From contig CBFDDP010000004.1 of assembly GCA_965603595.1 (NCBI GenBank), forward strand, positions 1 to 57,405: DNA of 57,405 nt. The letters are read 5' to 3'. Position numbers and translations under genes: made by a program. The DNA comes from an uncultured bacterium. Lineage in GTDB: Bacteria > Spirochaetota > B62-G9 > DRHN01. How positions within the stretch are numbered: the first letter of the stretch is position 1; each line of letters begins with the position of its first letter. A model generated the notes under the pieces. That model did no database searches and had not been told where the DNA came from. It saw only the letters and a list, made by a program, of their open reading frames with translations. This document shows, one piece after another, positions 6,669 to 56,155 of the stretch.

Positions 6669-7766
6669 ATGTTATACCGCCACTATGGAAAGACCGGAAA
6701 GAAGGTTTCCATACTCGGGTTCGGAGGTATGCGTTTCAAAAACGTTAGGGATACTGGCGAGTGCGTAGCCATGATGCTCGATGCGGCTGAAGCGGGGGTC
6801 AACTATTTCGATACGGCGCCCGGCTACATGGGTACGAAGAGCGAGCAGGTCTTCGGTGAGGCCTTTAAAGAATTCAAGAAACGGGGCATCCCATTCTACT
6901 CTGCAACCAAAACCTTCAAAGCCGATGAAAGCTCCATCAGGCGGGAACTGGATGCGCAGCTGCGCAGGCTGCATGTGGACTGCATAGATTTCTACCATGT
7001 ATGGTGCCTCACCACCCTGGAGGACTGGGAGGGACGAAAGCAAAGTGGTGTGATCGATGCGTTTTTAAAACTGAAGGAGGAGGGGCTCATCGGACACATC
7101 TGTGTCTCCAGTCACCTTATTGGAGATCAGATCAAAGGGCTTCTCCTGGAGGGGGTGTTCGAGGGGGTTCTCTTCGGTTATTCTGCCTATAACTTCAATA
7201 TCCGAGAGGCTGCCTTTGATGCGATCAGAAAGCACCGTCTCGGCTGCGTGGTGATGAACCCGCTGGGTGGAGGAATCGTACCTCAGAATCCGAAAGTCTT
7301 TGATTTCATCAGAACTCGCGAAAACGAGACCGTGGTGGAGGGGGCGCTCAGGTTCATCTTCTCGCACGAGGAGATCAATACAGCACTTGTGGGCTTTGGC
7401 ACGAGGGAGGAAGTGGCACAGGCAGTGAAGGCGGTACAGGGGTATCGTAGAATTTCCCCAGAAGAGATGACGCGCATGCGCGATCACATCAAGGAGTCCT
7501 TCCGCGGGCTCTGCACGGGATGCCGCTACTGCGATGAGTGTCCGGAGGGAATACCCATTCCCAAGTTCATGGATGCCTACAACCACAAGCTTCTGTACGG
7601 GAAGGAGCAAGAGCTCCTGGACCGGCTCAGGTGGCACTGGGACATATCTCCCCGTATCGCCGAAAGATGCACGGAATGTGAGCTGTGCGAAAAGCTCTGC
7701 ACACAGCATCTGCTCATCATGAGCAGGCTCAAGGAAATTGCTACAACCGGAAAAAGAAAAGAGTGA
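6669..7766 (+). CDS. Aldo/keto reductase with C-terminal Fe-S cluster motifs
   Basis: AKR N-terminus (GFGGMRF, VNYFDTAPGY) plus C-terminal Cys clusters CTGCRYCDECPEGIP and CTECELCEKLC. Confidence 0.8.
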   Translation: MLYRHYGKTGKKVSILGFGGMRFKNVRDTGECVAMMLDAAEAGVNYFDTAPGYMGTKSEQVFGEAFKEFKKRGIPFYSATKTFKADESSIRRELDAQLRRLHVDCIDFYHVWCLTTLEDWEGRKQSGVIDAFLKLKEEGLIGHICVSSHLIGDQIKGLLLEGVFEGVLFGYSAYNFNIREAAFDAIRKHRLGCVVMNPLGGGIVPQNPKVFDFIRTRENETVVEGALRFIFSHEEINTALVGFGTREEVAQAVKAVQGYRRISPEEMTRMRDHIKESFRGLCTGCRYCDECPEGIPIPKFMDAYNHKLLYGKEQELLDRLRWHWDISPRIAERCTECELCEKLCTQHLLIMSRLKEIATTGKRKE

Positions 7767-8803
7767 TGAGGTGCACTGGAGAGATGAAGAAGAGGATCGT
7801 TACCGCTGGTGATCGTGTGTACATGAAGTTCTTCGATATGGACTTCTTCAAGGTGCGGGCGCAGGAAGCCGATGCAGAGCTTGTTCCCTTCAAGGGTTTC
7901 GATGAGCGGAAATTCAAGCATGCCATCGAGCAGGCGGACGCACTCATTCTCATCGACCGTCCCCTCACCCGTGAACACATGTCCATCATGGAGAAGTGCA
8001 GCATCGTACTGGCCCTGGAGGTGGGATACGATTTTATCGATGTTCAGGCAGCAACCGAGCAGGGGATCGTCGTCTCGAACGTTCCCGTCTACTGCACCGA
8101 TCAGGTTGCGCTTCATGCATTCACCCTGCTGCTCGCAGTGAATAGAAAGTTGTCGACCTTGACCAACGAAACGGCAGGCGGCGGCTGGGACTACAATGTG
8201 TGTAAGCCTCTATACGAACTCAAGGACCGAAAACTGGGGATCATCGGTCTCGGGCGCATCGGACGGTCTCTCGTATCCAAGGCAAAGAGTGTCGGACTCG
8301 AGGTGATCGCATACGATCCTTACCTGGCAGACGACATTTTTGAGCTCAACGGGGTGAAGCGCTGCTACGATCTTGATGATGTGCTCAGAGAGGCCGATTT
8401 CATATCTCTGCACGTGCCTCTCACGGATGAGACCTTCCACATGATCGGCGAAGAGGAATTCAAGAAAATGAAGCGGGAGGCCGTCATCGTCAACACCTGC
8501 AGGGGCAAGGTTATCGATGAAAAAGCTCTTTACAATGCGCTGAAAAAAACTATAATTGCGGGAGGAGGCGTTGATGTTCTCGAAAAGGAGCCTCCTGATC
8601 CCGACAACCCCCTGCTCTCAATGGAGAACCTGATCGTAACGCCCCATGTGGCGTGGTACTCCGAGAACAGCATAGAGCGGCTGAAGAATCTGGGGATGGA
8701 TGAGGTTATCAGGGTGCTTGCCGGTAAAAGACCAAGGTTTATCGTAAATCCTGAAGTTTTATATACAAAGGGGGTGGATAATCGAAGTTCGCAGGAAACC
8801 TGA
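7766..8803 (+). CDS. D-isomer-specific 2-hydroxyacid dehydrogenase family protein
   Basis: GIIGLGRIGRSLV NAD-binding motif, NTCRG..ID, LEKEPP and TPHVAW catalytic-triad blocks. The start is uncertain: ATG 7766 overlaps the upstream stop as TGATG, and the alternative is ATG 7784. Confidence 0.8.
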   Translation: MRCTGEMKKRIVTAGDRVYMKFFDMDFFKVRAQEADAELVPFKGFDERKFKHAIEQADALILIDRPLTREHMSIMEKCSIVLALEVGYDFIDVQAATEQGIVVSNVPVYCTDQVALHAFTLLLAVNRKLSTLTNETAGGGWDYNVCKPLYELKDRKLGIIGLGRIGRSLVSKAKSVGLEVIAYDPYLADDIFELNGVKRCYDLDDVLREADFISLHVPLTDETFHMIGEEEFKKMKREAVIVNTCRGKVIDEKALYNALKKTIIAGGGVDVLEKEPPDPDNPLLSMENLIVTPHVAWYSENSIERLKNLGMDEVIRVLAGKRPRFIVNPEVLYTKGVDNRSSQET

Positions 8804-8836: not shown

Positions 8837-10303
8837 ATGCAGAACTATCAACTCACTGCTTTAATCTTTCTTATCGTCTACTATGCGTTCGTCATTGGAC
8901 TCAGCCTCTACCGGCGAATGGTGAAATCCGAGGTTGATTACTTCCTGGCCGGCCGTACCTTTCCCGCATGGATACTGGCGTTCTCCTATGCTGCTTCCTG
9001 GTTCGGGGGAGCGTCCGCAATCGTATCTGCGGACAAGGCATTTGCGGGAGGGTGGAGCGCCTACTTCGTTATGGGCGGCCCAACCATCTGTTCGGGCATC
9101 GTTTTAGTGTTCTTTGCAAAGCGGATCAGGATGTTTGCGCCCCTTTCACAGCCGGAAATGACGGAGGCACGGTACAACCGGACTGCGAGGATCATTCAAT
9201 CCATAATCATTTTCTGGTACATGATCACCTGGGCTGCTTCACAGATGATAGGGGCTGCCAATTTCGTGAGTGGATTTTTTGGCATGACCTACACCGTGGC
9301 CCTCTTTGTGGTGGTCGTCGTTGTCTGGTTCTACTGCATGTTCGGGGGGTTCAAGAGTGTTGTCACAACGGACCTGGGGCAGTTTATCTGGATCGTTGTG
9401 GCGATGCTCATCGTGCTCTTTACGGTTATAGGGCACTCCGGCGGCCTCGGGAACGTGAGGGCGGCCGTATCGCAGAGAGATATTCCAAACTTCTTCAACG
9501 TCTTTGGAAATGCCAAGTTCAGCCTGTTCTTTATCATATCCTTCTCGTTCGCCTGGGTGATCTCGGCTGAAATCTGGCAGCGGTTTTCTGCGGCGCGGTC
9601 CGTGAAGGAGGCGAAAAAGGTCTCGAGGGGCGCGCTGTTCATCAATATCCCTCTCTACTTTTTTGCGGTTGTCATTGGTATACTCGCCGTGGCCCTTTAT
9701 GCCGAAAAACCGGACACCCATATCATGGCTGCGGTCATAAAGGATTACGTGCCATGGTTCCTGGCTGGCATCAGCTTCGCAGGGCTGCTTGCAGCCGTTA
9801 TGTCCACGATGGACACTGCCCTGAACACTGGCGCACTCGTTCTGACTGAAGACATTTTTCACAGAGTCATCAACCCGAATGCGAGTGAAAAACAGCTTGT
9901 CCTGTTCGGGAGGATAGCCGTTACCATCATGGCAGCCTGCGGGATTTTCATTTCTCTTGCCATCCGGGATCTTCTGTGGGTGCTGTGGATGGCAAGCGAC
10001 ATCCTGGCAGCCGGGGTTTTCTGGCCGTTGGTACTCGGCATGTACGGGAAGTGGGGAACCTCGAAGGGTGCGATCTCGAGCATGCTGGTCGGTGGTGCCT
10101 TTACGCTGTGGCACTATCTGATCGATCTCGGAGTAAAACTCCCGAGCATCATACCGGCATGGCCCGGACGAAGCTGGCCGTTCTCCGTGTTCTGGGGAAT
10201 TGTCATAGGCTTCATCGTGTACACGGTCGTCTCGCTCGGTACGCAGTCCCCCGAGGAGAAGATGAAGGCCGAAACCTTCATGAACAGGTTTGCCGAGAAG
10301 TAG
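8837..10303 (+). CDS. Sodium:solute symporter family (SSF) transporter
   Basis: 488 aa with about 13 TM helices, N-terminal YFLAGR motif and general SSF composition. GGAGG RBS upstream. Confidence 0.8.
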   Translation: MQNYQLTALIFLIVYYAFVIGLSLYRRMVKSEVDYFLAGRTFPAWILAFSYAASWFGGASAIVSADKAFAGGWSAYFVMGGPTICSGIVLVFFAKRIRMFAPLSQPEMTEARYNRTARIIQSIIIFWYMITWAASQMIGAANFVSGFFGMTYTVALFVVVVVVWFYCMFGGFKSVVTTDLGQFIWIVVAMLIVLFTVIGHSGGLGNVRAAVSQRDIPNFFNVFGNAKFSLFFIISFSFAWVISAEIWQRFSAARSVKEAKKVSRGALFINIPLYFFAVVIGILAVALYAEKPDTHIMAAVIKDYVPWFLAGISFAGLLAAVMSTMDTALNTGALVLTEDIFHRVINPNASEKQLVLFGRIAVTIMAACGIFISLAIRDLLWVLWMASDILAAGVFWPLVLGMYGKWGTSKGAISSMLVGGAFTLWHYLIDLGVKLPSIIPAWPGRSWPFSVFWGIVIGFIVYTVVSLGTQSPEEKMKAETFMNRFAEK

Positions 10304-10400
10304 AATGGGCCGCGTTCGCGGCTGGATTTTCAGGTCGCGTGTCAATGCTGTTGAAGCGCGTAGGGGCTTCGTACGCGTGAAATAATCGACGTGAAACAAT

Positions 10401-10438
10401 GGGCGGATGTCCGACATGCGACATCCGCCCATTTCTTG
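10401..10438 (+). terminator. Rho-independent terminator after the symporter operon
   Basis: GGGCGGATGTC-cgacatgc-GACATCCGCCC (11-bp stem) followed by ATTTCTTGT. Confidence 0.8.
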
Positions 10439-10449
10439 TGTATACTCAA

Positions 10450-10478
10450 TTGACGCGCGCTGGTGAGCGATCTATATT
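10450..10478 (+). promoter_or_regulatory. Sigma70-type promoter of the corrinoid/MtmB-like operon
   Basis: TTGACG, an exact 17-nt spacer, then TATATT. Lies directly after the terminator and about 140 nt upstream of the first gene. Confidence 0.6.
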
Positions 10479-10507
10479 TAGTGCGGTAGCAAGTGTAATT
10501 AAGGTGA

Positions 10508-10609
10508 GAGTCAAGGGGACAGCTTACTTGATTTCACTTGTTCCCATGACCAGGAGTGAATGAATTACGTATGCTGCCCCCTTATTTCTGTCACCTTGAC
10601 TCGGAGGAG
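10508..10609 (+). promoter_or_regulatory. Structured 5' leader: long-range stem abutting the RBS
   Basis: GAGTCAAGGGGACAG (10508-10522) pairs at 14 of 15 positions with CTGTCACCTTGACTC (10588-10602). The enclosed 65 nt include an inner TTCACT/AGTGAA stem. The GGAGGAG RBS starts 1 nt after the 3' arm. Confidence 0.5.
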
Positions 10610-10617
10610 TGCGAAAA

Positions 10618-11256
10618 ATGGAATTATTCGAGAAGATCTATAGGGCAGTGGTGGAACGCAACCGCGATGAGGTGTTGAGGCTATCACATGAGGTTGTCGA
10701 CAGGAGGGTCGATCCAACACAGGCCATCGAGCAGGGCTTCAAGCGCGGTATGGAGCGTATAGGTGATATGTTCGCGGAGCTTGAGATATTCATCCCTGAT
10801 ATGATCACCGCAGCGGACATCATGAATGAGGGGCTCGAGATACTGCAGCCAGCCCTGAATAAGCGGGGCGGTGGCGGTACGAAGGGAAAGATTCTGCTCG
10901 GGACCATTCAGGGTGATGTACACGAGATAGGCAAGAACATCGTGCGCATACTTCTCGAGGGATCCGGTTTTGAGGTAATCGATCTTGGCAGAGACGTCAA
11001 TGTCCTCACCTTCATTGACAGGTATCAGGAGATCAGACCGGATATTATCGGTATCTCTGCACTCATGACCAACACGATGATAAATATTCCCCGTGTAATC
11101 GAAGATCTGAAGCGTCTCAATGTACGTGAGGATGTCAGGATCATGGTCGGCGGAGCCCCTGTGCTGCCCGACTGGGCGGAGGAGATCGGTGCGGATGGCT
11201 GCGGTCAGAGTGCCCGGGAAGCAGTCATACTCGCAAAACAATGGCTGGAGGCGTAA
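10618..11256 (+). CDS. Cobalamin-binding corrinoid protein (methyltransferase cognate, MtmC/MtbC/MttC-like)
   Basis: N-terminal helical cap plus a B12-binding Rossmann domain with GDVHEIGKN (DxHxxG), ISALMT (SxL) and MVGGAP (GG). ATG 10618 is preferred over GTG 10609 on RBS spacing. Confidence 0.85.
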   Translation: MELFEKIYRAVVERNRDEVLRLSHEVVDRRVDPTQAIEQGFKRGMERIGDMFAELEIFIPDMITAADIMNEGLEILQPALNKRGGGGTKGKILLGTIQGDVHEIGKNIVRILLEGSGFEVIDLGRDVNVLTFIDRYQEIRPDIIGISALMTNTMINIPRVIEDLKRLNVREDVRIMVGGAPVLPDWAEEIGADGCGQSAREAVILAKQWLEA

Positions 11257-12651
11257 ATGGTATCATACTGGGATTTCATACGGAGAATTGAAAGCGGCGA
11301 AATTATTGCTGAGGCGGACTATGACAGGAAGATCGGACAGGTGGCACAGGATATGGTTCAGAAGTACGATATACGTTATACTCCCGATGATCCGGTGCCC
11401 GCAGACGATGCACTCGCTGACAGGGTGTTCGAAGCCGCCATTGAGCTCTTCATGCAACTGGGCATATTCGTCATTGATACACGCAAGGTGGTAACCTTTG
11501 AGAGGGACGAGATCGAAGAGGCCCTGGCACATGCACCGGCAGAAGTGGTATACGGCACGGGGAATGAAAGGGTGGTGGTCCCGCACAGAATGGTTGAGGA
11601 TGAGCGGGACCCCATCGTGTTCTTTTCGGCAGTGGGTACACCAGTACCGGAGGAGGATTTTGTCAAGATCTGTATGAGCTATGTGCAGGAACCCCTTGCA
11701 GACACCTTCTCGGGCCCGCTTATAACCACCTATCGAGGGATGCCCATCGCTTCGGGGTCTCCCGTAGAGGTCGAGGCGGGTATATGGAACGTGATCAAGC
11801 TGCGCGAGGCTGCACAGTTTGCCGGCAGGCCGGATATTTCCATACACAACTTCATGTCAATTGCCGAGCGGACCGATGCCACCATTGCAGCGGCGCGGCC
11901 CGAGTTCGGTGTTCGCGAAGGTGACGGTCTATTTACGGCAGCCATTGCGGAGATGAAGGTCGATTATGAGCGGCTGAAACGCATTGCCTTTCAGATGCAC
12001 ACACCCTATGTAATCGGTGGGCTCTACGGCCCGCTCATGGGAGGGTATGCGGGCGGCCCTGAAGCAACAGCGATTGTTCTCGTGGCCCATCATTTTCTCG
12101 GACTCTTTGCCTTCAGGGCGCACAGGCACAACGGCTTCCCCATCAACATCAACCAGACCTGCAACACGACGCGGGAGATGCTCTGGCTTGTGAGCGTTTC
12201 GGGGCAGGCGATTGCCAGGAACACGAAGCTCGTCACCGTTGCAAATGCCTTCATGGCATCGGGGCCCTGTACGGAGATGATCACCTACGAGCTTGCTGCG
12301 CACTCGCTCGCAGCAACCGTTTCGGGCTGGCATCTGAATCCCTCAGCAGTTGCACGAAACCGCTTCCCGAGCCACTGCTCAGGCATGGAGCCCCGTATGC
12401 ACGCCGAGGTAGGGCATGTCGCGGCGCGTGCCGGAATCACGCGCAAGGATGCCTCGAAAATCGTGAATAAGCTTCTCGACTTCTATGAGAAGGATATCAA
12501 GACCGCACCAAAGGGTAAGAGCTTCCGTGAGTGCTACGATATCGAAACGGTGCAACCCACGGAGGAGTATACAGGGCTCTGGAAGAAGAGCAGGTCAACT
12601 CTGCATGACCTGGGTCTTGATTTCACACTGCTGAATAGCACAGGAGGATGA
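11257..12651 (+). CDS. MtmB-family (monomethylamine methyltransferase-like) corrinoid methyltransferase, non-pyrrolysine form
   Basis: Collinear with remembered Methanosarcina MtmB. Matching blocks are LGIFVIDTRKVV, ASGPCTEM, SGMEPRMHAEVG, APKGKSFRECYDIETVQPTEEY and LHDLGLDF. Uninterrupted ORF with no in-frame TAG. The start abuts the corrinoid-protein stop. Confidence 0.8.
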   Translation: MVSYWDFIRRIESGEIIAEADYDRKIGQVAQDMVQKYDIRYTPDDPVPADDALADRVFEAAIELFMQLGIFVIDTRKVVTFERDEIEEALAHAPAEVVYGTGNERVVVPHRMVEDERDPIVFFSAVGTPVPEEDFVKICMSYVQEPLADTFSGPLITTYRGMPIASGSPVEVEAGIWNVIKLREAAQFAGRPDISIHNFMSIAERTDATIAAARPEFGVREGDGLFTAAIAEMKVDYERLKRIAFQMHTPYVIGGLYGPLMGGYAGGPEATAIVLVAHHFLGLFAFRAHRHNGFPININQTCNTTREMLWLVSVSGQAIARNTKLVTVANAFMASGPCTEMITYELAAHSLAATVSGWHLNPSAVARNRFPSHCSGMEPRMHAEVGHVAARAGITRKDASKIVNKLLDFYEKDIKTAPKGKSFRECYDIETVQPTEEYTGLWKKSRSTLHDLGLDFTLLNSTGG

Positions 12652-12653
12652 GC

Positions 12654-12905
12654 ATGCCCCACGTTTCCATTAAACTGTACCCCGGAAGGACGCTCGATCA
12701 GAAAAAGGCGCTCACACAGCGTATCGTTGCAGCCATGGCGGAAACTATAGGCGCGGACGACAAGAGCATTTCAGTTTCCTTCGAGGAGGTGGCGCCTGCT
12801 GACTGGCCTGAGATGGTGGTGAAGCCGGATATTGCGGGAAAGCTCGACTGTGTGGTAAAGCTTCCGGGATATGAGTCGAAGTATTTGAAGGATATCGAGA
12901 AATAG
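12654..12905 (+). CDS. 4-oxalocrotonate tautomerase-family protein (Pro1 enzyme)
   Basis: The start at ATG 12654 gives MPHVSIKLYPGRTLDQKKALTQRIV, the canonical beta-alpha-beta tautomerase N-terminus with catalytic Pro1. A GGAGGA RBS lies inside the end of the upstream gene. Confidence 0.75.
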   Translation: MPHVSIKLYPGRTLDQKKALTQRIVAAMAETIGADDKSISVSFEEVAPADWPEMVVKPDIAGKLDCVVKLPGYESKYLKDIEK

Positions 12906-12915
12906 GGGAGCTGTC

Positions 12916-14013
12916 ATGGATATAGATCGGCTTATGAACAGCGGACTCAGGGACATCAAGCCCTATGTCGGAGGGAAGCACAAGGAGGAGGCTAAGGAGA
13001 AATACCGTATAGAGGAGCCGGTAAAGATGAGCTCCAACGAAAACCCTCTCGGTGTGTCACCCCGTGCTCTCGAGGAGGCGCAGGGTATACTGCCGGGAGC
13101 AAATGTGTATCCGGAGGGTTCCAACCGTCTGCTGCGTGAAGCCATTGCAGGTATGCATGATATAAGTTCCGAAGCCGTTGTGTTCGGAAATGGGGCCGAT
13201 GAGATCATCTACTACCTTGCCATGGGCCTCATCAACGACGGGGACGAGGTGATCATATCCCGTTTGACCTTTCCGATCTACGAGATTGCGTGCAGGATGA
13301 TGCGTGCTGCGATTGTGTACAGCGACATGAAAGGCCTTCTCATTGACACTGATGACATTTCGAAGAGAATAACCGACAAGACAAAGCTCATTGCACTGTG
13401 CAATCCGAACAACCCGACGGGACATGCCCTTCACCGCGATGATGTGTACCGTTTCATCGATACTGTTCCCAGGAACGTACTTATCATCATGGATGAGGCG
13501 TATGCTGAATTTGCCGACCCTGACCTTTTCCCCGAATCGGTGGCAAAGTTCAGGGCGGGCCATGACAATCTCTTTATCATCAAGACCCTGTCAAAGGCCT
13601 ACGGACTTGCAGGCTTCAGAGTTGGGTACGGAATCGGCGATGCGCGCATCGTCGAACTCATGAACCGGATAAAGCTTCCCTTCAACATCAGTATCGTTTC
13701 ACAGCGCGCAGCGCTCGGGGCCCTTCAGGACCATGCATTTATTGAGAAGACGATACGAAATACGCGTGAAGGCAGGGAAGATATCTATAGGGCAGTTGAG
13801 CGTCTCGGGCTCTCCTACGTTGAGTCGAGTACAAACTTCGTACTCATCGACACGGGACGGGACGGCGACCAGGTTACAGATGAGATCATGAAGCGCGGTG
13901 TCATTGTACGCTCGGCGAAGAACTACGGGACACCCAATTCGATCAGAGTCACTGTCGGGACCCACGAGCAGAACCACCGGTTTATAGCTGCCATGGAGGA
14001 GATCTTCACATAG
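12916..14013 (+). CDS. Histidinol-phosphate/aromatic aminotransferase family (class II PLP aminotransferase)
   Basis: SSNENPLGVSP, NPNNPTG, DEAYAEF and KTLSKAYGLAGFRVGY (PLP lysine). Confidence 0.8.
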   Translation: MDIDRLMNSGLRDIKPYVGGKHKEEAKEKYRIEEPVKMSSNENPLGVSPRALEEAQGILPGANVYPEGSNRLLREAIAGMHDISSEAVVFGNGADEIIYYLAMGLINDGDEVIISRLTFPIYEIACRMMRAAIVYSDMKGLLIDTDDISKRITDKTKLIALCNPNNPTGHALHRDDVYRFIDTVPRNVLIIMDEAYAEFADPDLFPESVAKFRAGHDNLFIIKTLSKAYGLAGFRVGYGIGDARIVELMNRIKLPFNISIVSQRAALGALQDHAFIEKTIRNTREGREDIYRAVERLGLSYVESSTNFVLIDTGRDGDQVTDEIMKRGVIVRSAKNYGTPNSIRVTVGTHEQNHRFIAAMEEIFT

Positions 14014-14152
14014 CAGAAATACAGGGCTCGAGCACTTCACCGATCCCTTCCTGTAGCAGCTTCAAAACATGCCGTACCTGATTGTAGAAGCCGGTGACCC
14101 TATAGTATTGCAGGGATGTATAGTATACTGTATGATTCTAAAGGGGGTGGTG

Positions 14153-14677
14153 ATGCATATGAAGGGTTCTCTAGAGGGGATGATTAAAACGGACAAAAAT
14201 CCCCTGACTATTGCAGGCCTTGTGTGTAGTAATTTCGAGCAGGCGAGTCAGAAGCAAAAAAGAGAGAATCTGTCGAAACTCTTCGCTCTGCTTGCACGGT
14301 CCTTTGAGATACAGGCAAAGGAAAAAGTAAAGGACAGTGGGAAAGCTGTATCCGAAGAAGAGCTCATTACCGATTTTCAAAAATCGATTGAGCAGGACCT
14401 GCAGACAGCGTATACCGAGGGTGAGAGCAGGGTAAGGAAGGAGGGGAACAGGGGTGCACTGCGCGCTCTGACGTGGGGAAGTAAGGTCAGCGCGATTCAA
14501 AAATCGGTGCTTAAAAGGTATCTGAAGTTCGGTGATGAGTTGCTAAAGGGGGATCAGGCAATTCACGTGTGTCAGGCCTGCGGTTTCATAGGAATCGGGG
14601 AGGCTCCTCCCGATATATGCCCTGTCTGCAAAGCCCCCTCGTCAAGGTTCACCACGCTAGCGCCAAAGAGGAGATGA
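14153..14677 (+). CDS. Rubrerythrin-like helical protein with a C-terminal rubredoxin-type zinc ribbon; diiron ligands absent
   Basis: C-terminal HVCQACGF...ICPVCKAP. The helical body contains no ExxH motifs and almost no His. AAGGGGG RBS precedes ATG 14153. Confidence 0.6.
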   Translation: MHMKGSLEGMIKTDKNPLTIAGLVCSNFEQASQKQKRENLSKLFALLARSFEIQAKEKVKDSGKAVSEEELITDFQKSIEQDLQTAYTEGESRVRKEGNRGALRALTWGSKVSAIQKSVLKRYLKFGDELLKGDQAIHVCQACGFIGIGEAPPDICPVCKAPSSRFTTLAPKRR

Positions 14678-14680
14678 CCG

Positions 14681-15304
14681 ATGTTTGCAGCTCGAAACAT
14701 TACCCTGTGCACGAAGGATTGTGTATGTCTGTTTATATGTCCTACCGGAGCGACGGACACGGAGAATGGCCAGATCGATGCGGAAAAGTGCATAGACGGC
14801 TGCAGGCTCTGCGTGGACGCATGCCCCTCCCATGCCATTTATCTTGTACATGAGCGATATCCCGAAAGGGGTTTTCCTTCTGATGATGTGATGGAGGTGA
14901 TGACGAGCCTTCTTGAGCGAAAGGCCGGGTTTTATATCAGGGCATTGACTGCTGCCGATGAAGCCTCTCCAATCAAGGACACACTGTACAGGAGCCTGGC
15001 GCTATCCAATAAGGTGCTTGCTGAGGATTGTATTCGGGAGACAGGGCATATGATACCGGAGACGGAAAAATTCAGGGATCTTGTCTCTTCTCAGGCTCTT
15101 GAGAATCTCTACTCAAATTCCTTTAAAGGTGATGAAGGGGAGTCTGTCGGAGTAATACTGAACAGCATCCTGGATGCGCTCGTGGAGAACAGGGATGCGG
15201 TAAGTGTTGCCGCCTTTTTATGCGAAGAGTGCGGTTACATTGTATTGGACAGGAAACCTGAAAAGTGTCCCCAGTGCGCCTCGACAAGCCTACAGTCCAT
15301 ATAA
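14681..15304 (+). CDS. 4Fe-4S ferredoxin-domain protein with a helical body and C-terminal rubredoxin-type ribbon
   Basis: CTKDCVCLFICP and CIDGCRLCVDACP cluster motifs; C-terminal CEECGY...CPQC. GAGGAG RBS 7 nt upstream. Confidence 0.65.
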   Translation: MFAARNITLCTKDCVCLFICPTGATDTENGQIDAEKCIDGCRLCVDACPSHAIYLVHERYPERGFPSDDVMEVMTSLLERKAGFYIRALTAADEASPIKDTLYRSLALSNKVLAEDCIRETGHMIPETEKFRDLVSSQALENLYSNSFKGDEGESVGVILNSILDALVENRDAVSVAAFLCEECGYIVLDRKPEKCPQCASTSLQSI

Positions 15305-25127: not shown

Positions 25128-26195
25128 ATGAAGAAGCTGATCAACAGGCCTGAGGATGTGGTGCGGGAGAGCATGGAGGGAATGGCCCTGGCCCACGGTG
25201 ATATACTGGCCGTCCACTCTGATCCCGGATTCGTCTTCCGCAGGGATGCTCCGGTGAAGGGAAAGGTTTCACTCATATCAGGAGGCGGAAGCGGGCATGA
25301 ACCTCTGCACAGTGGCTTTGTGGGTATGGGGATGCTCGACGCGGCCTGTCCCGGAGAGGTGTTTACGTCTCCAACCCCTGATCAGATGCTGGAGGCGGCA
25401 CGGAAGGTACACGGCGGCAGGGGCGTACTCAACATTGTGAAGAATTACAGCGGCGATGTGATGAACTTCGAAATGGCAGCCGAGCTCATTTCGGGCGAGA
25501 ATATGGATGTACGTAATGTGCTCATCGATGACGACGTGGCGGTGAAGGACAGTCTGTACACGCAGGGGCGGAGGGGCGTCGGAACCACGGTTCTGGCAGA
25601 GAAGATATGCGGTGCCGCAGCCGAGGCAGGCTATGATCTGGAGAAGCTTGCGCAGCTGGGCACCCGCGTCTCTTCGGGTGGACGGAGCATGGGGCTGGCC
25701 CTTACTTCCTGTACCGTACCTGCAAGCGGCGTACCCACCTTTGAGCTCAATGAGAACGAGATGGAGATGGGTATCGGCATACATGGTGAGTCGGGCCGGG
25801 AGAGGAAACTCCTGCTGAGAGCGGACGAAATTACCGAGATCCTCGCCAGCAGTATCATCGAAGATCCAGCCTATACCCGTACCGTCAGGGTATGGGATGG
25901 GGAGCAGTGGCGTGAACAGGAGCTGACCGACAGGTCCTTTCAGCGGGATGAAAGGGTACTCGCTTTTGTAAACGGTATGGGGGGAACACCTCTTTCCGAG
26001 CTGTATATTGTGTTCAGGAAGCTCTGTGATCTCTGTGAGGCGAAGGGTCTGCACATTGTGCGCAGCCTCGTTGGGAACTTCGTCACCTCCCTTGAGATGC
26101 AGGGGTGTTCCATAACACTTCTGAGGGTGGATGACGAGCTCCTGAAGTTGTGGGACGCGCCGGTACGTACGCCTTCACTGAGATGGGGTGTGTGA
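25128..26195 (+). CDS. dhaK: Dihydroxyacetone-kinase substrate-binding subunit DhaK
   Basis: [10 protein letters not shown] and [10 protein letters not shown] (hemiaminal His) motifs; AAGGAG RBS. Confidence 0.9.
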
Positions 26196-26196
26196 G

Positions 26197-26850
26197 ATGG
26201 TTCACAGGGAGCAGATTGAGCAGTGGCTCAGGGTTTCAGCCGGCGTGATGGAGGAGAACAGGGAAACCCTCACGAAGCTCGATGCAGCACTGGGCGATGC
26301 TGACCACGGCATAAACATGGACCGCGGTTTTAAAAAAGTGGTAGCCATGCTCGACAGTAAGCCGGCCGGCGATATCGGTGCCCTTCTCAAGCAAGCGGGC
26401 ATGACGCTCATCTCCTCGGTGGGAGGTGCGAGCGGCCCCCTGTACGGCACCTTTTTCATGAGGGCGGGTATGGCGGTTGCCGGGAAGGAGACGCTGGAAA
26501 CCGATGATCTGGCCGCCCTGCTCGAGGAGGGGTGTAGAGGGGTTATGGAGCGTGGAAGGGCGCAGGCAGGGGAGAAGACGATGGTGGACGCCCTGCTTCC
26601 AGCGGCCCGTGCACTGGAGGAGGCCGCTCGGAAGGGTTTGGATACAACGGATGCGACAGGCAGTGCTGCCCGTGAAGCCTGCCGGGGAGCGAAGGAAACC
26701 ATTCCCCTCATTGCGCGAAAGGGCCGTGCAAGCTACCTTGGCGACCGGAGCAAAGGGCATCAGGACCCTGGCGCAACCTCCTCCTGCCTCATCATTAAAG
26801 CGCTGCACGATGTACTTGCGGCCCACTCCCCGGCCCTGCAGAAAGGCTGA
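26197..26850 (+). CDS. dhaL: Dihydroxyacetone-kinase ADP-binding subunit DhaL
   Basis: LDAALGDADHGINMDRGF and GGASGPLYGTFF motifs. Confidence 0.9.
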   Translation: MVHREQIEQWLRVSAGVMEENRETLTKLDAALGDADHGINMDRGFKKVVAMLDSKPAGDIGALLKQAGMTLISSVGGASGPLYGTFFMRAGMAVAGKETLETDDLAALLEEGCRGVMERGRAQAGEKTMVDALLPAARALEEAARKGLDTTDATGSAAREACRGAKETIPLIARKGRASYLGDRSKGHQDPGATSSCLIIKALHDVLAAHSPALQKG

Positions 26851-26853
26851 TTC

Positions 26854-29343
26854 GTGGTAGGGATTGTCATCGTCACCCATAGCAGGGAGCTTGCCGAGTC
26901 GGTGATCGCACTGGCCGGGCAGATGCTTCGCAAGGAGGTTCCCCTTGTTGCAGCCGGTGGTGTAGACGATCTCAAGCATCCCTTTGGAACCGATGTACCA
27001 AAGATAATCGCGGCAGTGGAATCCGTATACAGTGATGACGGTGTGCTGGTGCTGATGGACATGGGAAGTGCCCTTCTCAGTGCTGAAACTGCACTCGAGT
27101 TTCTGACGGAAAAACAGAAAAACCGTGTTCTTCTCTGCGAGGCACCTCTGGTTGAGGGAGCGGTTGCAGCCGCCGTCTGTTCAGAGGGCGGCGGAACACT
27201 CGATGAGGTAGCCCGTGAAGCTCGTGGCGCATTGCAGAGTAAGAAAGAACAACTCAGGGGGGAGCCCTCGGCCATCTCCGATTCTGACATGGACGGGGTT
27301 GTGGCCAAAGTCCGTGTCACTGTACAAAATCCGCTCGGTATCCATGCACGCCCTGCAGCAGCGCTTGTTTCCACGGCTTCCCGGTTTAAATCCACGGTCA
27401 TGGTTCGGAACGCAAGCAGGGGAAGCGGTGCAGTGAACGCACGGAGCATCAACCAGGTTTCTCTGCTGGGTGTACAGCAGGGAGATGAGATTGTGCTGAG
27501 TGCATCGGGGCCTGATGCGGATACTGCACTTGCTGAGCTCAAAACACTCGTTGAGAGCGGATTCGGAGAGTCGGAGCGCCGTATCGAATTGGGTACACCT
27601 GCTGCTCGTGACAGCGATGTGTCCCGGAAAGGCGGACTGTCTGGTGTCGCCGCATCTCCGGGCGTTGCCCTTGCACCGTGCCTGCTGTTCAAACCTCATG
27701 TACATGCACTGCCCCCGCGTGAACCGCAAGAACCCGAAGAAGAGTGGGCGAAGCTCACTGCTGCCATCGATGCAGTGAAGCTGGAACTTCGTGGGATGAG
27801 GGACAGGGTAGCGGCCAGGGCAGGTGATGGTGAGGCATCCATCTTTGATGCACATCTCCTCATGCTCGACGATGAGGAGCTCCTCCGTTTAGTCCATTCG
27901 AATGTATACACAGGTAAGATGAATGCAGAGCAGTCCTGGGCTGCATCGGTGGAGGAACTTCTTCAGTCATACGGCCATCTTGATTCTTCCTATCAGCGTG
28001 AACGGGGAAGGGACCTGGAGGACTTGAGGGTGCAGGTGCTTGCAATGCTCACGGGCGGTCAATCGAGAACCTTTGAGGTCGATGATGAAGCTATTGTGAT
28101 TGCAGCCGATCTCACACCTTCCGATATCGCCCTCTTCGACACCGCGAAAATAATCGGGCTGTGTACGGCCTACGGAGGTCCCACATCCCACAGTGTAATT
28201 CTCGCGATGGCACTCGGCATTCCTGCGGTTGTAGGTCTGGGGCTCGAAATCCTCCGTGTTCCCGAGGGAAGGATGGTTGCGATAGACGGTGAAGAGGGCA
28301 CAGTGTGGGTGGATCCGGAGGACCCTGATTCGTTCAGGTCCAAAAGGAGCCGATGGTTACAGTCCCGCACAGGGCCATCAACCACTGTACGGAAAGGGGT
28401 CTCAACGGTTGACGGCAGGAAGATACGCATCGTTGCGAATATCAGCAGCCTGATGGAAGCTGAAAGGGCGGTTCAATTGGGGGCCGATGGTGTCGGTGTG
28501 CTGAGAACGGAATTCCTCTTCATGAGGCGGCCTCATGCACCGTCGGAGGAGGAACAGGCAGAAATGTACCGTTCCATAGCGGACAGGATAGGTACAGGAC
28601 CGTTCATAATCAGAACCCTTGATGCCGGTGGCGACAAGCCGCTTGCCTATGTGCCCATGACAGGGGAGGCGAATCCCTTTCTCGGGGTAAGGGGCCTGCG
28701 GCTCTCCCTTGAGCACCCGGAGCTGTTTATGGTTCAGCTGCGTGCTATCTTGAGGGCCAGTCAGGGCAGGAATGTGGGTATTCTGCTTCCCATGGTATCA
28801 TCTGCTGATGAGATCAGGGAGGCCAGGGGGTATCTCACACGGGCCCAAAGGGAACTGAAGAATGAGAATGTTCCCTTTGACGACGGGGTGAAGCTCGGCA
28901 TCATGGTTGAGGTCCCTGCTGCGGCGCTTATCGCAGAGCGTCTGGCAGGGGAGGTTGACTTCATGAGTATAGGGACCAACGACCTGAGCCAGTACGTCCT
29001 GGCTGCCGACCGTGGCAGCGAGCGGGTATCTTCCCTGTGTGATGCCCTGCATCCGGCTGTTCTCCATCTTATACAGCTGACCGCCCAAGCCTGTCATGGT
29101 TCAGGAAAATGGGCAGGGATCTGTGGAGAGGTGGCGGGGGACAGGTCTGCCTTACCGGTGTTGCTGGGACTTGGAGTCGACGAGCTGAGCATGAATCCAT
29201 ACTCCATCCCGATGATCAAGGAAGCGGTATCACAGCTCCACCTCCGGGAAGCTTCCACACTCGCAGCGGAGGCTCTGCAGCTGAGCGATCCCCGGCAGGT
29301 GAGGAGGCTGGTTTCCCAGAGGCTGGGCGCCGCATTCGAGTAG
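26854..29343 (+). CDS. dhaM: Multiphosphoryl-transfer protein: DhaM (EIIA-Man-like) + HPr + full-length PTS Enzyme I
   Basis: GIVIVTHS (EIIA-Man His), VTVQNPLGIHARPAA (HPr His15), GGPTSHSVILA (EI His) and SIGTNDLSQY (PEP-utilising C-terminal domain). Confidence 0.85.
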   Translation: MVGIVIVTHSRELAESVIALAGQMLRKEVPLVAAGGVDDLKHPFGTDVPKIIAAVESVYSDDGVLVLMDMGSALLSAETALEFLTEKQKNRVLLCEAPLVEGAVAAAVCSEGGGTLDEVAREARGALQSKKEQLRGEPSAISDSDMDGVVAKVRVTVQNPLGIHARPAAALVSTASRFKSTVMVRNASRGSGAVNARSINQVSLLGVQQGDEIVLSASGPDADTALAELKTLVESGFGESERRIELGTPAARDSDVSRKGGLSGVAASPGVALAPCLLFKPHVHALPPREPQEPEEEWAKLTAAIDAVKLELRGMRDRVAARAGDGEASIFDAHLLMLDDEELLRLVHSNVYTGKMNAEQSWAASVEELLQSYGHLDSSYQRERGRDLEDLRVQVLAMLTGGQSRTFEVDDEAIVIAADLTPSDIALFDTAKIIGLCTAYGGPTSHSVILAMALGIPAVVGLGLEILRVPEGRMVAIDGEEGTVWVDPEDPDSFRSKRSRWLQSRTGPSTTVRKGVSTVDGRKIRIVANISSLMEAERAVQLGADGVGVLRTEFLFMRRPHAPSEEEQAEMYRSIADRIGTGPFIIRTLDAGGDKPLAYVPMTGEANPFLGVRGLRLSLEHPELFMVQLRAILRASQGRNVGILLPMVSSADEIREARGYLTRAQRELKNENVPFDDGVKLGIMVEVPAAALIAERLAGEVDFMSIGTNDLSQYVLAADRGSERVSSLCDALHPAVLHLIQLTAQACHGSGKWAGICGEVAGDRSALPVLLGLGVDELSMNPYSIPMIKEAVSQLHLREASTLAAEALQLSDPRQVRRLVSQRLGAAFE

Positions 29344-31214: not shown

Positions 31215-32054
31215 TCACTTAATCTTCAGATTCTTGAATGCCGAAGCCACGTTAAGTATGGCATCCTCGAGGGGAATGCGCTCAGTGGCAGAGCCTGTCT
31301 GCAGCCCGTGTCCGTCAGTAAGGTCAAGGATCTTCTGCCCGCTCCCTGGGTCAGACAGTGCGGCACCATGGGTGAGGAGTATGATGTCCTTCTTGATCTT
31401 TCGTGCTGTGTTATACATCTCCTGTGTCCGTGCAGCCGTGTCCTTCACGGTGTCGGGGTGATCGTAGCCGATTGATCCTCCGACAGTTGTACCCGCATGG
31501 AAGATGAACACGTCAGGGTCAGCTCCTTTCATAATGCGTTCCGTTTCCGACATGTTGAAGGCATAGGCAACGGTCACCATCCCCATTTCCTTCGCAGTTT
31601 TCAGCATCTCTATCTCATTGTCATAGGTGATGCCCGTGTGTTCAAGAACATTGCGGAAGTTTCCGTCGATGAGTCCGACGGTCGGAAAGTTATTTACACC
31701 GATGATGCCGATACGCATCAGCTCCCCGAGGAAGTGAGGGATTTCCCTGGTCGGATCGTTGGCATTCACCCCGGCCATGATCGGCATGTCCCTGACAACG
31801 GGCATTATTTCTCGGGAGGCGTACTCGAACATCAGACCGTTCGCATCGGACACGGGCCACATGCCCGTCATGGACCCCGCGCCATAGCTGCGCAGTTTGA
31901 CAGCGTTGTACACGCCGGCCATGTCGCATCCTGACCGTTCCAGAAACTTGGCAACGATGCCGGAGCCGCAGCTTGCCATGAACAGTGCACGGCCTGCCTG
32001 TATTTCCTTTCGCAATCTCTCGAGAACCTCTTCCCGCGTAAATCTTCGCGCCAT
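31215..32054 (-). CDS. Phosphoenolpyruvate-hydrolase-like TIM-barrel protein (C-terminal-half equivalent of Tm-1)
   Basis: MARRFTREEVLERLRKEIQAGRALFMASCGSGIVAKFLERSGCDMAGVYN opening, typical of the PF09370-type family that partners UPF0261. GGGAGGA RBS. Confidence 0.7.
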   Translation of the reverse strand: MARRFTREEVLERLRKEIQAGRALFMASCGSGIVAKFLERSGCDMAGVYNAVKLRSYGAGSMTGMWPVSDANGLMFEYASREIMPVVRDMPIMAGVNANDPTREIPHFLGELMRIGIIGVNNFPTVGLIDGNFRNVLEHTGITYDNEIEMLKTAKEMGMVTVAYAFNMSETERIMKGADPDVFIFHAGTTVGGSIGYDHPDTVKDTAARTQEMYNTARKIKKDIILLTHGAALSDPGSGQKILDLTDGHGLQTGSATERIPLEDAILNVASAFKNLKIK

Positions 32055-32134
32055 ACTGTCCTCCCTTCACATGTGGAAAAGGCCTGTGCAGCATCCGCCG
32101 CACCGCCCCTGCTTCATACGCAGACTTTTTTTGA

Positions 32135-33025
32135 TCATACCCTGCCGGTACTTCCGAACAACTCCATAAGTGAGCGAACTGCATCGCCGATGGCTTCGTC
32201 TGTTCCACCGAACAGGTCGAAAGCACCCCCTGCCCCGAGGACCTCATATCCGGGGTACCGGGAACCGGTATTCGAAGCTCGTTCCTGTATCGAATGGAAT
32301 GCGGCCTTCTTCACGGCCCTGCCGATGTTCACCTTTCGTATACCGGCCCGGATCGCCTCTCTCATGGACTGCTCGTCCACGCTCGAGCCGGCGTGCAGCA
32401 CAAGGGGAATGTTGAGTTTTACCCCTAACCTCTCAATGAGCCCGATGTCGAGCTCGACCCCCCCCTCAAGGTCTGAGTGGCGGTTCCCGACAACCACACC
32501 GAGCGCATCGATATCCGTCTTTTGAACGAACTCCTCCGCTTCATCGGGATCGGTCATCGAAAAATCACTGCCGCGGGCGTGAGGAGCGTCAGGCGGTTCT
32601 CCCATCTCCGCCTCCACGGCAATACCACGCCCGTGGGCCTTCTTTGCAAGTGCCCCTATCTTTGCGACCCGCTTCTCATAGGGCAACCCTTCATCGCTGT
32701 ACATGACCAGGTTGAAGCCATGCTCCATTGAATCGTAGACCCAGTCGAGAAAATAGGATTCGTTGAAGATGTATGAAACAGGCACCTGGGCAGCTTCTGC
32801 GGCAGCTCTGCCGGCCTGTGCATAGGATGCGAACCAGCGAAGCTCCTCACCGAGAAATCGGGGGAGATATATACCGCTGAATCCCACGATAACAGGTGAA
32901 CGGGCAGCCTCGGCTGCTCGCAGGACTGCGATGAGCGAGTGCAGGTCCCAGGTTTCGAAATAGCCGACAGCGTAGGACCCTGCTTTCGCCTGGTCCATCA
33001 TATCGTTGAAGGGAATCAGTGGCAT
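32135..33025 (-). CDS. Class II fructose/tagatose-bisphosphate aldolase-family protein with an atypical active-site motif
   Basis: Family blocks GFNLVMYSDEG, VEAEMG, GNRH and LVLHAGSS are present. The canonical HLDH block reads IFNE (VPVSYIFNES). Confidence 0.7.
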   Translation of the reverse strand: MPLIPFNDMMDQAKAGSYAVGYFETWDLHSLIAVLRAAEAARSPVIVGFSGIYLPRFLGEELRWFASYAQAGRAAAEAAQVPVSYIFNESYFLDWVYDSMEHGFNLVMYSDEGLPYEKRVAKIGALAKKAHGRGIAVEAEMGEPPDAPHARGSDFSMTDPDEAEEFVQKTDIDALGVVVGNRHSDLEGGVELDIGLIERLGVKLNIPLVLHAGSSVDEQSMREAIRAGIRKVNIGRAVKKAAFHSIQERASNTGSRYPGYEVLGAGGAFDLFGGTDEAIGDAVRSLMELFGSTGRV

Positions 33026-33044
33026 GTCAGTCTTCTCCTCTGTG

Positions 33045-34265
33045 CTATTGTTTCACCATTGTGATGAGATGTTCTGCGGCCTCGGTAGCAAAGGCGGGAT
33101 CGTTTATGTCGAGCTCCCGAATGTGAAGGGGGATGTCCCGCCTGAGCACCTCTTTCAAAGTTTCCACATAGATACGGTCGGCCTCAGGATTGTACAACGG
33201 TCCGCCCGGGGTGGAGTAGGAGCAGAAACCCTTCATGGGTATGAACCACTCAATGGGGCCCTTCCCAGGATTTACCCGTTCGGCCTGTACCCTGGCAAGG
33301 GCCCGCAGCTCGTCCGCGTTGGTACGTACGTTGGTGTACAGTGCGCTGTGACGAACGAGCTGCCGCCCCCTGAACTTTTCGGGAATTGTTTCAGGGGGGC
33401 CATAGGTATTACAGGTCACAGCGCCGGGGCAGATAACCTGCGGTATGCCCAAGCTTGTCGCCACGGTCATGCGCTCGGAGGTTGCCGCGAGGTAGCCGCC
33501 GAGCATCTCCTGAATCACCTCGATGGTGGCTAGATCGAGCACCCCGTTGATCTGTCCCTCTTTCATGAGTGATTCCATTGCCCTGCCGCCGGTCCCCACT
33601 GCATGGAAGACGATGGTGTCGAATCCGGCCTCACCCAGTACTTCCTTTGCCTTCATCGCACCGGGCGTGGTTATGCCGACAGTGGTAATCGCAATGAGGG
33701 ACTGTTCCCGTTCCGCAGCTTCGATTTCCGTCCGGGCCATTCCCGCGATAGCGCCTGCGGCACGCCCGAGTATTTTACGGCTCACCCTGTTCAGTCCCAT
33801 GATATCTGCGACCGAAAACATCATGGTGATGTCCTTGATTCCCACGAGATTCGAGGTATTGCCCGAAGCCATGGTGGAGACGAGGAGCTTGGGGAATCCC
33901 ACGGGAAGCTCCTGCATGACGAGCGCTGCAAGTGTACTTCCCTGCGTGCCACCGCATGATATGATTCCGTGTACCTTTCCTGATGCGAGCAGTTCATTTA
34001 CGACTACTGCAGCCCCCCGTGCCATAACCGGAGATATCCTCTCCCGTGTGGGGCCTTCGGCAAAAAGCGCGTTAAAGTCCTCGCCTGCTGCTTTTGCAAC
34101 CTCACGCCTCGTTATATCGGGGTCGAAGAGCGGCGGATTGATCACGCCCACATCCACGGTGAGTGTGCTACAGCCCGCCTTCTCGATATGCCTCCTGATA
34201 AAGGTGTATTCCTCACCTTTCGTGTCCATACAGCCGAGAATGACGATTCTCCTCTTCATAGACAC
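33045..34265 (-). CDS. UPF0261 / Tm-1-like ATP-binding protein, copy 2
   Basis: MSMKRRIVILGCMDTKGEEYTFIRRHIEKAGCSTLTVDVGV. AGGAGG RBS. First gene of a minus-strand three-gene operon. Confidence 0.75.
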   Translation of the reverse strand: MSMKRRIVILGCMDTKGEEYTFIRRHIEKAGCSTLTVDVGVINPPLFDPDITRREVAKAAGEDFNALFAEGPTRERISPVMARGAAVVVNELLASGKVHGIISCGGTQGSTLAALVMQELPVGFPKLLVSTMASGNTSNLVGIKDITMMFSVADIMGLNRVSRKILGRAAGAIAGMARTEIEAAEREQSLIAITTVGITTPGAMKAKEVLGEAGFDTIVFHAVGTGGRAMESLMKEGQINGVLDLATIEVIQEMLGGYLAATSERMTVATSLGIPQVICPGAVTCNTYGPPETIPEKFRGRQLVRHSALYTNVRTNADELRALARVQAERVNPGKGPIEWFIPMKGFCSYSTPGGPLYNPEADRIYVETLKEVLRRDIPLHIRELDINDPAFATEAAEHLITMVKQ

Positions 34266-56097: not shown

Positions 56098-56155
56098 AAA
56101 AAACCTGCTGCTGTTGCTACAATGACAATAGAGACTGTATGAGTGGAGGAAGAGC

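Follow-up and report, generated by a model that had tools for sequence, protein, structure and literature searches.

The MtmB family of corrinoid-dependent methyltransferases takes its name from MtmB of Methanosarcina barkeri (1L2Q/1NTH), a monomethylamine:corrinoid methyltransferase, which carries pyrrolysine (Pyl) at position 202 and works with the corrinoid protein MtmC. Pyl-free homologues are already known, as is the corrinoid methyl-transfer machinery in general. One of them, MtqB of Methanococcoides methylutens Q3c, reportedly branches near the Pyl-containing MtmBs and takes methyl groups from tetramethylammonium and choline, passing them to cob(I)alamin; the remaining non-Pyl MtmBs were left without a function in the same study (Kashyap et al., Front Microbiol 2026, PMC13044021). 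Another, from 'Ca. Formimonas warabiya' DCMF, is induced on dichloromethane and has no assigned function (PMC9768040). The Pyl-free betaine demethylases of the MttB superfamily (MtgB, MtpB, MtcB and MtyB), enzymes of anaerobic bacteria that dispense with pyrrolysine, act on amino-acid-like betaines. They combine a substrate-specific methyltransferase (MT1) with a corrinoid protein (CoP), a second methyltransferase (MT2) that delivers the methyl group to tetrahydrofolate, and an activase. Here, we analysed a 57,405-nt stretch of DNA from an uncultured spirochaete (contig CBFDDP010000004.1 of assembly GCA_965603595.1, positions 1 to 57,405), called the window below. At 10450-14013 it holds a four-gene unit whose second gene encodes a Pyl-free MtmB-family MT1. 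The gene context of its relatives points, tentatively, to methylated histidines as substrates.

This locus resembled each of the described systems in part. With MtmB/MtmC it shared the Pfam family from end to end, the fold and an adjacent DxHxxG corrinoid protein. It differed from them in its bacterial host, in the residues at and around the Pyl site, in having no MtbA-type partner adjacent, and in that neither pyl genes nor tRNA genes were found in the window. With MtqB/MtqC it had in common a Pyl-free MtmB-family protein with a cognate corrinoid protein, and the presumed attack of Co(I) on an N-methyl group. Its host, however, is a spirochaete and not a methanogen, and its neighbours are amino-acid and histidine genes rather than methanogenesis genes. 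The MttB-superfamily demethylases offer the same logic of MT1, CoP, tetrahydrofolate-linked MT2 and activase, but their MT1 belongs to another family. The DCMF protein can be likened by description only: it is bacterial, Pyl-free and a member of the MtmB superfamily, and it was reported as ~30% identical to other family members and as induced under an unrelated condition (PMC9768040).

Family, fold and pyrrolysine site of the methyltransferase

MT1 (11257-12651, plus strand, 464 aa) is a full-length, Pyl-free protein of the MtmB family and not of the MttB family. It matched the MtmB profile PF05369 with 336 bits (cut-off 25, E=4.7e-100) over profile positions 3-450 of 450, and a profile search gave no match to MTTB (PF06253) at E<=0.01. 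In the Protein Data Bank (PDB), MtmB1 (1L2Q/1TV2) was matched with E=9e-69 over residues 5-456. An AlphaFold2 model calculated with 37 homologues (pLDDT 91.4) was superposed by Foldseek on M. barkeri MtmB (1NTH) with template modelling (TM) scores of 0.91/0.93 and a root-mean-square deviation of 2.1 Å over 455 columns. Against MttB and MtgB structures, the TM scores were 0.44-0.51 (about 0.47), at 11-15% identity. A first-pass annotation, made from the sequence alone, had judged the protein collinear with MtmB and not with MttB on the basis of short peptide blocks, and had named a profile search and a structure superposition as checks. Both placed the protein inside the MtmB family. The quoted blocks were all present in the translation, and the M. 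barkeri blocks set beside them agreed with the PDB sequence.

Pyl202 of MtmB (GMGV-X-GPE) aligned with His197 of MT1 (ISI-H-NFM). None of the 114 full-length homologues (53-100% identity) departed from the pair His197-Asn198. As the annotation had stated, the MT1 reading frame has no in-frame UAG; it contains no other internal stop either. No pyl-gene Pfam family occurred among the ~50 window open reading frames (ORFs) scanned, and no tRNA genes in the window, which alone was covered. Residues E229, E259, Q333 and Y335, which we take to be the neighbours of pyrrolysine in MtmB, correspond to F226, L256, N330 and F332 in MT1, and L256, Y257, F332 and H359 were nearly invariant across the His-Asn clade. 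From these residues, the pocket is predicted to be rebuilt and largely hydrophobic or aromatic, not merely relieved of Pyl. One candidate for a Pyl-containing close relative (P0161, 72% identity), which started exactly past the Pyl-equivalent site, was discarded: it was a contig-edge fragment, and its upstream frame read ...IPIHNFMS.

An exhaustive search against representatives clustered at 50% identity returned 1007 clusters at E<=1e-3 and 222 at E<=1e-30. Across these family representatives, almost any residue was found at the Pyl position. The window clade formed a single cluster, the next nearest representatives being 41-44% identical, and MT1 itself was 32-33% identical to M. barkeri MtmB. 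None of its closest homologues was a characterised enzyme. Representatives that resemble Pyl-MtmB most, at 41-42% identity to the M. barkeri enzyme, were only 28-31% identical to MT1, so the window clade appears to differ from the clade of MtqB; this separation follows the published description of MtqB, not its sequence. The first-pass annotation had known of no substrate for non-Pyl MtmB proteins, a statement now outdated by the work on MtqB (PMC13044021).

The four-gene unit

Four ORFs lie on the plus strand between 10609 and 14013, in the composition that had been described at first reading: CoP (10609-11256), MT1, a 4-oxalocrotonate-tautomerase-family protein (12654-12905) and a HisC-type aminotransferase dependent on pyridoxal phosphate (PLP; 12916-14013). 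The combination of these four partners has not been described before, as the annotation had suspected. The CoP stop codon TAA abuts the MT1 ATG at 11257, with no gap. The MT1 stop TGA occupies 12649-12651, and the tautomerase ATG at 12654 follows after 2 nt, not the 3 nt first counted. An AGGAGGA precedes this start, which encodes MPHVSIKL; an alternative ATG for the ORF is found at 12648. The 10-nt gap between the tautomerase stop at 12905 and the HisC ATG at 12916 was as first given.

The predicted methyl carrier, CoP, consists of a cap domain (PF02607) and a Rossmann domain (PF02310) with the DxHxxG motif GDVHEIGKN. It matched TIGR02370, "methyltransferase cognate corrinoid protein", with 199 bits, and the MtgC and MtbC models with 178-195 bits; its 195 bits against MtgC compare with a cut-off of 310. 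The tautomerase matched PF01361 (E=4e-12) from profile position 1, with Pro1 directly after the initiator methionine. It is PptA/YdcE-like, scoring 59.6 bits against NF002324 PptA (below the cut-off of 83) and having E. coli YdcE (1GYJ) as its best PDB match, and is presumably an enol-keto tautomerase for a 2-oxo acid. The aminotransferase exceeded the TIGR01141 equivalog cut-off (327 bits versus 276.55), carries the PLP-lysine motif TLSKAYGLAG and had histidinol-phosphate aminotransferases as best PDB matches (E=8e-59). Five other module-linked aminotransferases were tested, and all were above the hisC equivalog cut-off.

Gene neighbourhoods of the relatives

Related loci were collected from genomes (9), from metagenomes (79) and around selected homologues (15), and annotated by a reference set drawn from Pfam-annotated examples. 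Counts refer to non-redundant loci. The genome loci came from Spirochaetota metagenome-assembled genomes (MAGs), except for one Peptococcaceae MAG (L007). CoP was directly 5' of the MT1 gene in 61 of the 62 loci, in line with the pairing expected by the first-pass annotation. The linkage that it had also proposed for the other two partners held in part. The tautomerase was sporadic, being present in the nearest relatives of the window and in a group at 66-67% identity (3' of MT1 in L016, L021, L023-24, L026-27, L029 and L042-43). HisC-type genes were linked, but not as one co-inherited gene.

The window belongs to subclade I (76-100% MT1 identity), carried by Spirochaetota MAGs wherever the genome record names the organism. 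Its loci (L001-4, L006 and others) have the order (aldo/keto reductase)-2-hydroxyacid dehydrogenase (2HADH)-sodium:solute symporter (SSF)-CoP-MT1-(tautomerase)-HisC. A HisC-type gene was found within 3 kb in 9/11 loci, and Ldh_2-hisI-hisG followed HisC in ten. In subclade I' (64-72% identity), three loci at 66-67% identity (L016, L042 and L043) read IclR-CoP-MT1-tautomerase-(AFOR, HisC on the opposite strand)-2HADH-SSF, which is the gene content of subclade I in a rearranged order.

The strongest clue came from the sister clade, subclade II (58-63% identity), whose MT1 copies are embedded in complete histidine-utilisation operons, a context not visible from the window sequence. The order there is HutU-HutH-<TRAP transporter-CoP-MT1-HisC-HutI-FTCD_N-FTCD_C, the last two being glutamate formiminotransferase-cyclodeaminase (FTCD). 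A HisC-type gene was directly 3' of MT1 in all 15 loci (15/15), Hut or FTCD genes lay within 8 kb in 10/10, and HutH passed TIGR01225 with 678 bits (cut-off 539). The arrangement CoP-MT1-HisC-FTCD recurred behind a different regulator in L013 and L047. In L051, a perfect inverted duplication (HutI-AT-MT1-CoP-TRAP, then TRAP-CoP-MT1-AT-HutI, with AT for aminotransferase) was counted as one observation, because it is most likely an assembly artefact. PDB relatives of the TRAP binding protein did not identify its ligand, as the matches named only a generic DctP.

Subclade III genes (53-57% identity) lie in an island with other neighbours. These include an M20 peptidase, a fumarate-reductase-like flavoprotein, and proteins of the NMT1-type binding and DUF3830/cucumopine-synthase-like kinds. 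In L005, L008, L014, L072-L075, L079-L083, L095 and L098, one CoP was common to the MtmB-like gene and at least one Pyl-free MttB-family gene. This sharing suggests that a multiply methylated compound may be demethylated stepwise by MttB-type and MtmB-type enzymes. Both in subclade III and at L100, MttB-family genes adjoined the MtmB-like one, which hints at a division of labour between the two families rather than equivalence. In L090, a His-Asn paralogue at 44% identity adjoined a HisC-type gene and a HutH fragment, while the main MtmB-like copy (53% identity) was a few kb from HutU.

Two loci of subclade I' held further MtmB-family genes. On the contig of L043, a second module (10160-14162) consists of IclR, a HisC-type aminotransferase, CoP and an MtmB-family protein only 37% identical to MT1, whose Pyl site is occupied by Val; the linkage of HisC-type genes thus extends to more than one MtmB subfamily. 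In L016 (1975-4007), the MtmB-family gene after a second CoP is broken into ORFs of 231 and 219 aa that lie in different frames, next to a likewise split molybdopterin oxidoreductase. The break in the MtmB-family gene reflects pseudogenisation or faulty assembly.

HisC identities across subclades were lower than those of MT1. The window HisC was 54% identical to that of L017 and 35-37% to those of L016, L018 and L013; MT1 identity across the same pairs was 60-67%. We rejected the aminotransferase as one co-evolving partner: identity between subclades was only 35-40%, no more than between unrelated HisCs, so the aminotransferases near MT1 do not descend as a single gene inherited along with it. 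Subclade I may simply carry the housekeeping hisC of its his cluster; otherwise, HisC-type genes must have been recruited repeatedly. Both alternatives keep the module tied to histidine, yet both weaken the picture of a fixed pair of MT1 and aminotransferase.

Proposed function and alternatives

From family, fold, the exchange of Pyl for His, gene coupling and conserved neighbourhoods, we infer methyl-transfer activity, a substrate class and possible pathway directions. The module would demethylate a methylated histidine-type amino acid in a corrinoid-dependent manner, a reading to which we give a probability of roughly 45%. The unit at 10450-14013 would then be the substrate-specific half of a corrinoid methyl-transfer system. 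The TIM barrel of MT1 would bind the N-methylated substrate, and the Co(I) corrinoid of the co-translated CoP would take the methyl group to give methyl-Co(III). An MT2 encoded elsewhere, possibly of the URO-D family, would pass the methyl group on, probably to tetrahydrofolate, and a RamA-type activase, also encoded elsewhere, would keep the cobalt reduced. His197-Asn198 and the remodelled pocket would stand in for pyrrolysine. Because pyrrolysine is replaced, the substrate would have to be activated by its own charge or protonation, as with other Pyl-free enzymes.

Methylated histidine is proposed because the neighbourhoods of the relatives hold hut and his genes. SSF and TRAP transporters usually carry carboxylates, so with transporters of these two types the substrate would be carboxylate-bearing: N-alpha-methyl- or dimethyl-histidine, hercynine, or ring pi- or tau-methylhistidine. 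In the lineage of the window, uptake would be via the Na+ symporter. Histidine and imidazolepyruvate would be interconverted by the HisC-type aminotransferase and the Pro1 tautomerase, and imidazolepyruvate and imidazole-lactate by the D-2-hydroxyacid dehydrogenase. This route could run catabolically, as an electron sink for methyl oxidation, or in reverse, as histidine salvage beside the his genes. In subclade II, the histidine produced would enter the HutH-HutU-HutI-formiminotransferase pathway.

Several observations weigh against a methylated histidine as substrate. To our knowledge, every characterised Pyl-free enzyme uses quaternary amines, and converting hercynine to histidine would require three demethylations. 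The genes hut, hisI and hisG were not found among the window ORFs scanned. Within subclade I', the group at 68% identity (L010-12) retains CoP-MT1 alone. In subclade III only 1/19 loci has an aminotransferase, and the linked genes instead encode MttB-family proteins, a molybdopterin oxidoreductase and an Asp/Glu racemase. The aminotransferases of subclades I, I' and II are as divergent as unrelated HisCs, and in subclade I a his cluster may simply contribute its housekeeping hisC. Since each subclade samples related organisms, the loci amount to ~4-5 independent contexts, not a hundred. Finally, MT2 and activase were located neither in the window nor recurrently in ~100 loci.

Part of this evidence would fit the same machinery acting on another N-methyl amino acid or betaine, such as N-methyl-Phe/Tyr/Trp, hypaphorine, sarcosine or N-methylalanine, which we regard as rather unlikely. 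The HisC-type enzyme would then be a broad aromatic or general aminotransferase, and the tautomerase and 2HADH would turn an aryl- or alkyl-pyruvate into a 2-hydroxy acid, comparable to the first steps of a Stickland-type fermentation. The tautomerase is closest to E. coli YdcE/PptA, and PptA is a phenylpyruvate tautomerase. A close PDB relative of the aminotransferase is a 'putative phenylalanine aminotransferase' (4R2N), and the 2HADH is generic, with glyoxylate reductase, PGDH and McyI as best matches. A His-Asn relative at 42% identity adjoins an ornithine-cyclodeaminase/mu-crystallin-family gene and an amino-acid permease, subclades at ~60% identity may differ in substrate, and the window itself lacks hut and his genes among its scanned ORFs. 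However, histidine is indicated by the hut operon and by hisC-hisI-hisG, the two independent contexts of the clade, and aromatic-amino-acid genes were seen in no locus.

An MtqB-type demethylation of choline, tetramethylammonium or a similar free amine, with the aminotransferase, his and hut neighbours as bystanders of synteny, is improbable in our view. The only characterised Pyl-free MtmB homologue does act on tetramethylammonium and choline (PMC13044021). Some relatives hold CoP-MT1 alone or with MttB-family genes, and the aminotransferases are not orthologous between subclades. Against these stand the mere 33% identity of MT1 to M. barkeri MtmB and its 28-31% identity to the representatives nearest Pyl-MtmB, where MtqB has been placed. 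The 2- and 10-nt spacing of stop and start codons favours co-expression with the tautomerase and the aminotransferase. Partner genes recur in rearranged order, and a HisC-type gene follows MT1 directly in every subclade II locus. The transporters are of the SSF or TRAP type and not BCCT transporters, which are typical of choline and betaine systems. A further idea gives PLP the role of pyrrolysine: the HisC-like protein would activate a secondary N-methyl amine as a PLP iminium, or the module would run in the methylating direction. HisC-family genes stand beside MtmB-family genes repeatedly and apparently independently, including the Val-type subfamily in L043; start and stop codons abut in subclade II, and the His-Asn clade no longer has the acidic residues that neighbour Pyl in MtmB. 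This idea is nevertheless purely speculative and without precedent, many clade members have no adjacent aminotransferase, and the aminotransferases score as ordinary HisC. We consider it very improbable.

Candidates for the missing partners

The annotation had noted that neither an MT2 nor a RamA-type activase is adjacent to the module, and the wider comparison agreed with this. No RamA-type family was found among the window ORFs scanned, and none recurred in the ~100 related loci. De novo clustering of the unannotated ORFs of all loci, aimed at a hidden MT2 or activase, gave nothing recurrent; what it returned was confined to ABC ATPases, TPR proteases and M24 peptidases. In the window, MT2-like candidates are limited to two URO-D-family ORFs (337 and 383 aa; 55084-57307, plus strand; PF01208 E=8e-13 and 6e-25, no NCBIfam match). 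They lie ~42 kb from the module, reach up to the right end of the window and follow a LacI-type regulator (53986-55026). One possibility is that they are MT2-type methylcorrinoid methyltransferases; another is that they belong to a second methyltransferase system extending beyond the window. Their link to the module is putative.

URO-D genes also occurred near MtmB-family modules in L006 and L025. In L006, the closest genome relative, the URO-D gene comes after HisC-IclR. Locus L102 (6317-10860), from a Firmicute with sporulation genes nearby, reads GntR-CoP-MtmB-family-URO-D (450 aa)-CobW. Its MtmB-family protein is 44% identical to MT1 and has Cys-Asn at the Pyl site, with URO-D directly after it. 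It is a candidate for a compact, complete MT1-CoP-MT2 set within the MtmB family.

Two same-strand ORFs at 14069-15304, 55 nt past HisC, encode a rubrerythrin-like protein with a C-terminal rubredoxin-type domain and a 4Fe-4S protein with a rubredoxin-type end. As substitutes for the activase they were dropped, since they are not conserved beside the module in L001-L009.

Upstream genes, transcription signals and other ORFs of the window

Three plus-strand genes precede the unit. An aldo/keto reductase with a C-terminal 4Fe-4S dicluster domain (6669-7766; PF00248 E=1e-25, Fer4_9) is peripheral to the module; L006, with a 72% identical copy, was the only relative keeping it. The D-isomer-specific 2HADH (7763-8803; PF02826 E=1e-58, PF00389), which interconverts 2-oxo acids and 2-hydroxy acids, was close to the MtmB-like gene in 6/7 subclade I and 3/4 subclade I' loci with enough flanking sequence. 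The PutP/PanF-like SSF symporter (8837-10303; PF00474 E=6e-43; TIGR00813 185.7 bits, cut-off 184) had copies 78-92% identical immediately 5' of CoP in L001-L004 and L006, and was present in further subclade I loci too. It is presumed to import the substrate or a related carboxylate.

A terminator-like hairpin (10398-10433, plus strand) with a 14-bp stem containing 8 G-C pairs, followed by TCTTGTGTAT, ends the symporter gene. Just past it, a sigma-70-like promoter (10450-10478, plus strand; TTGACG-17-TATATT, 10/12 matches) begins at the very position from which the first-pass annotation had started the unit. Because this promoter-like element follows a strong terminator-like hairpin, CoP, MT1, tautomerase and HisC look like one transcription unit. 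A 130-nt structured leader follows the promoter. The 5' leader region at 10484-10625 forms a single long hairpin (-44.4 kcal/mol, z=-2.8) ending beside the ribosome-binding site. It had no Rfam match at the gathering score and was not conserved even among close relatives, and it is therefore probably a lineage-specific structure; a riboswitch in the 305-nt gap before CoP was dropped as a candidate for the same reasons.

Elsewhere in the window, 25128-29343 encodes DhaK and DhaL (dihydroxyacetone kinase subunits) and then a DhaM-like phosphotransfer protein joined to EI, its 829 aa spanning fused EIIA-Man, HPr and Enzyme I domains. On the minus strand, a UPF0261 protein, a class II aldolase-family protein and a PEP-hydrolase-like protein are encoded in series at 31215-34265.

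Significance

What is new here is a clade with an invariant His-Asn and a pocket that appears rebuilt, the bacterial amino-acid genes that surround it, and a concrete hypothesis on its substrate. The JGI label 'methylamine--corrinoid protein Co-methyltransferase' is probably wrong for these MtmB-like proteins. It is possible, though we hold it somewhat doubtful, that the His-Asn clade represents the first corrinoid-dependent demethylase for methylated histidines, be it hercynine, N-alpha-methylhistidine or the ring-methylated forms from anserine or actin. We know of no anaerobic degradation route for methylhistidines or hercynine, and in the library searched no publication connected either of them with corrinoid methyltransferases.

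If the proposal is true, Pyl-free MtmB chemistry would extend from free quaternary amines to the nitrogen of amino acids. Anaerobes would gain an oxygen-independent route from methylhistidines to histidine catabolism or salvage, and hercynine- or ergothioneine-derived and muscle-derived methylhistidines would have a new anaerobic fate. Pyl-free MtmB homologues make up hundreds of sequence clusters, and a function has been assigned only for MtqB. For this clade, the neighbourhood names a concrete, purchasable substrate class, which makes an open annotation problem directly testable. Solving it would reveal how the MtmB scaffold operates without pyrrolysine, through an invariant His-Asn and a remodelled pocket.

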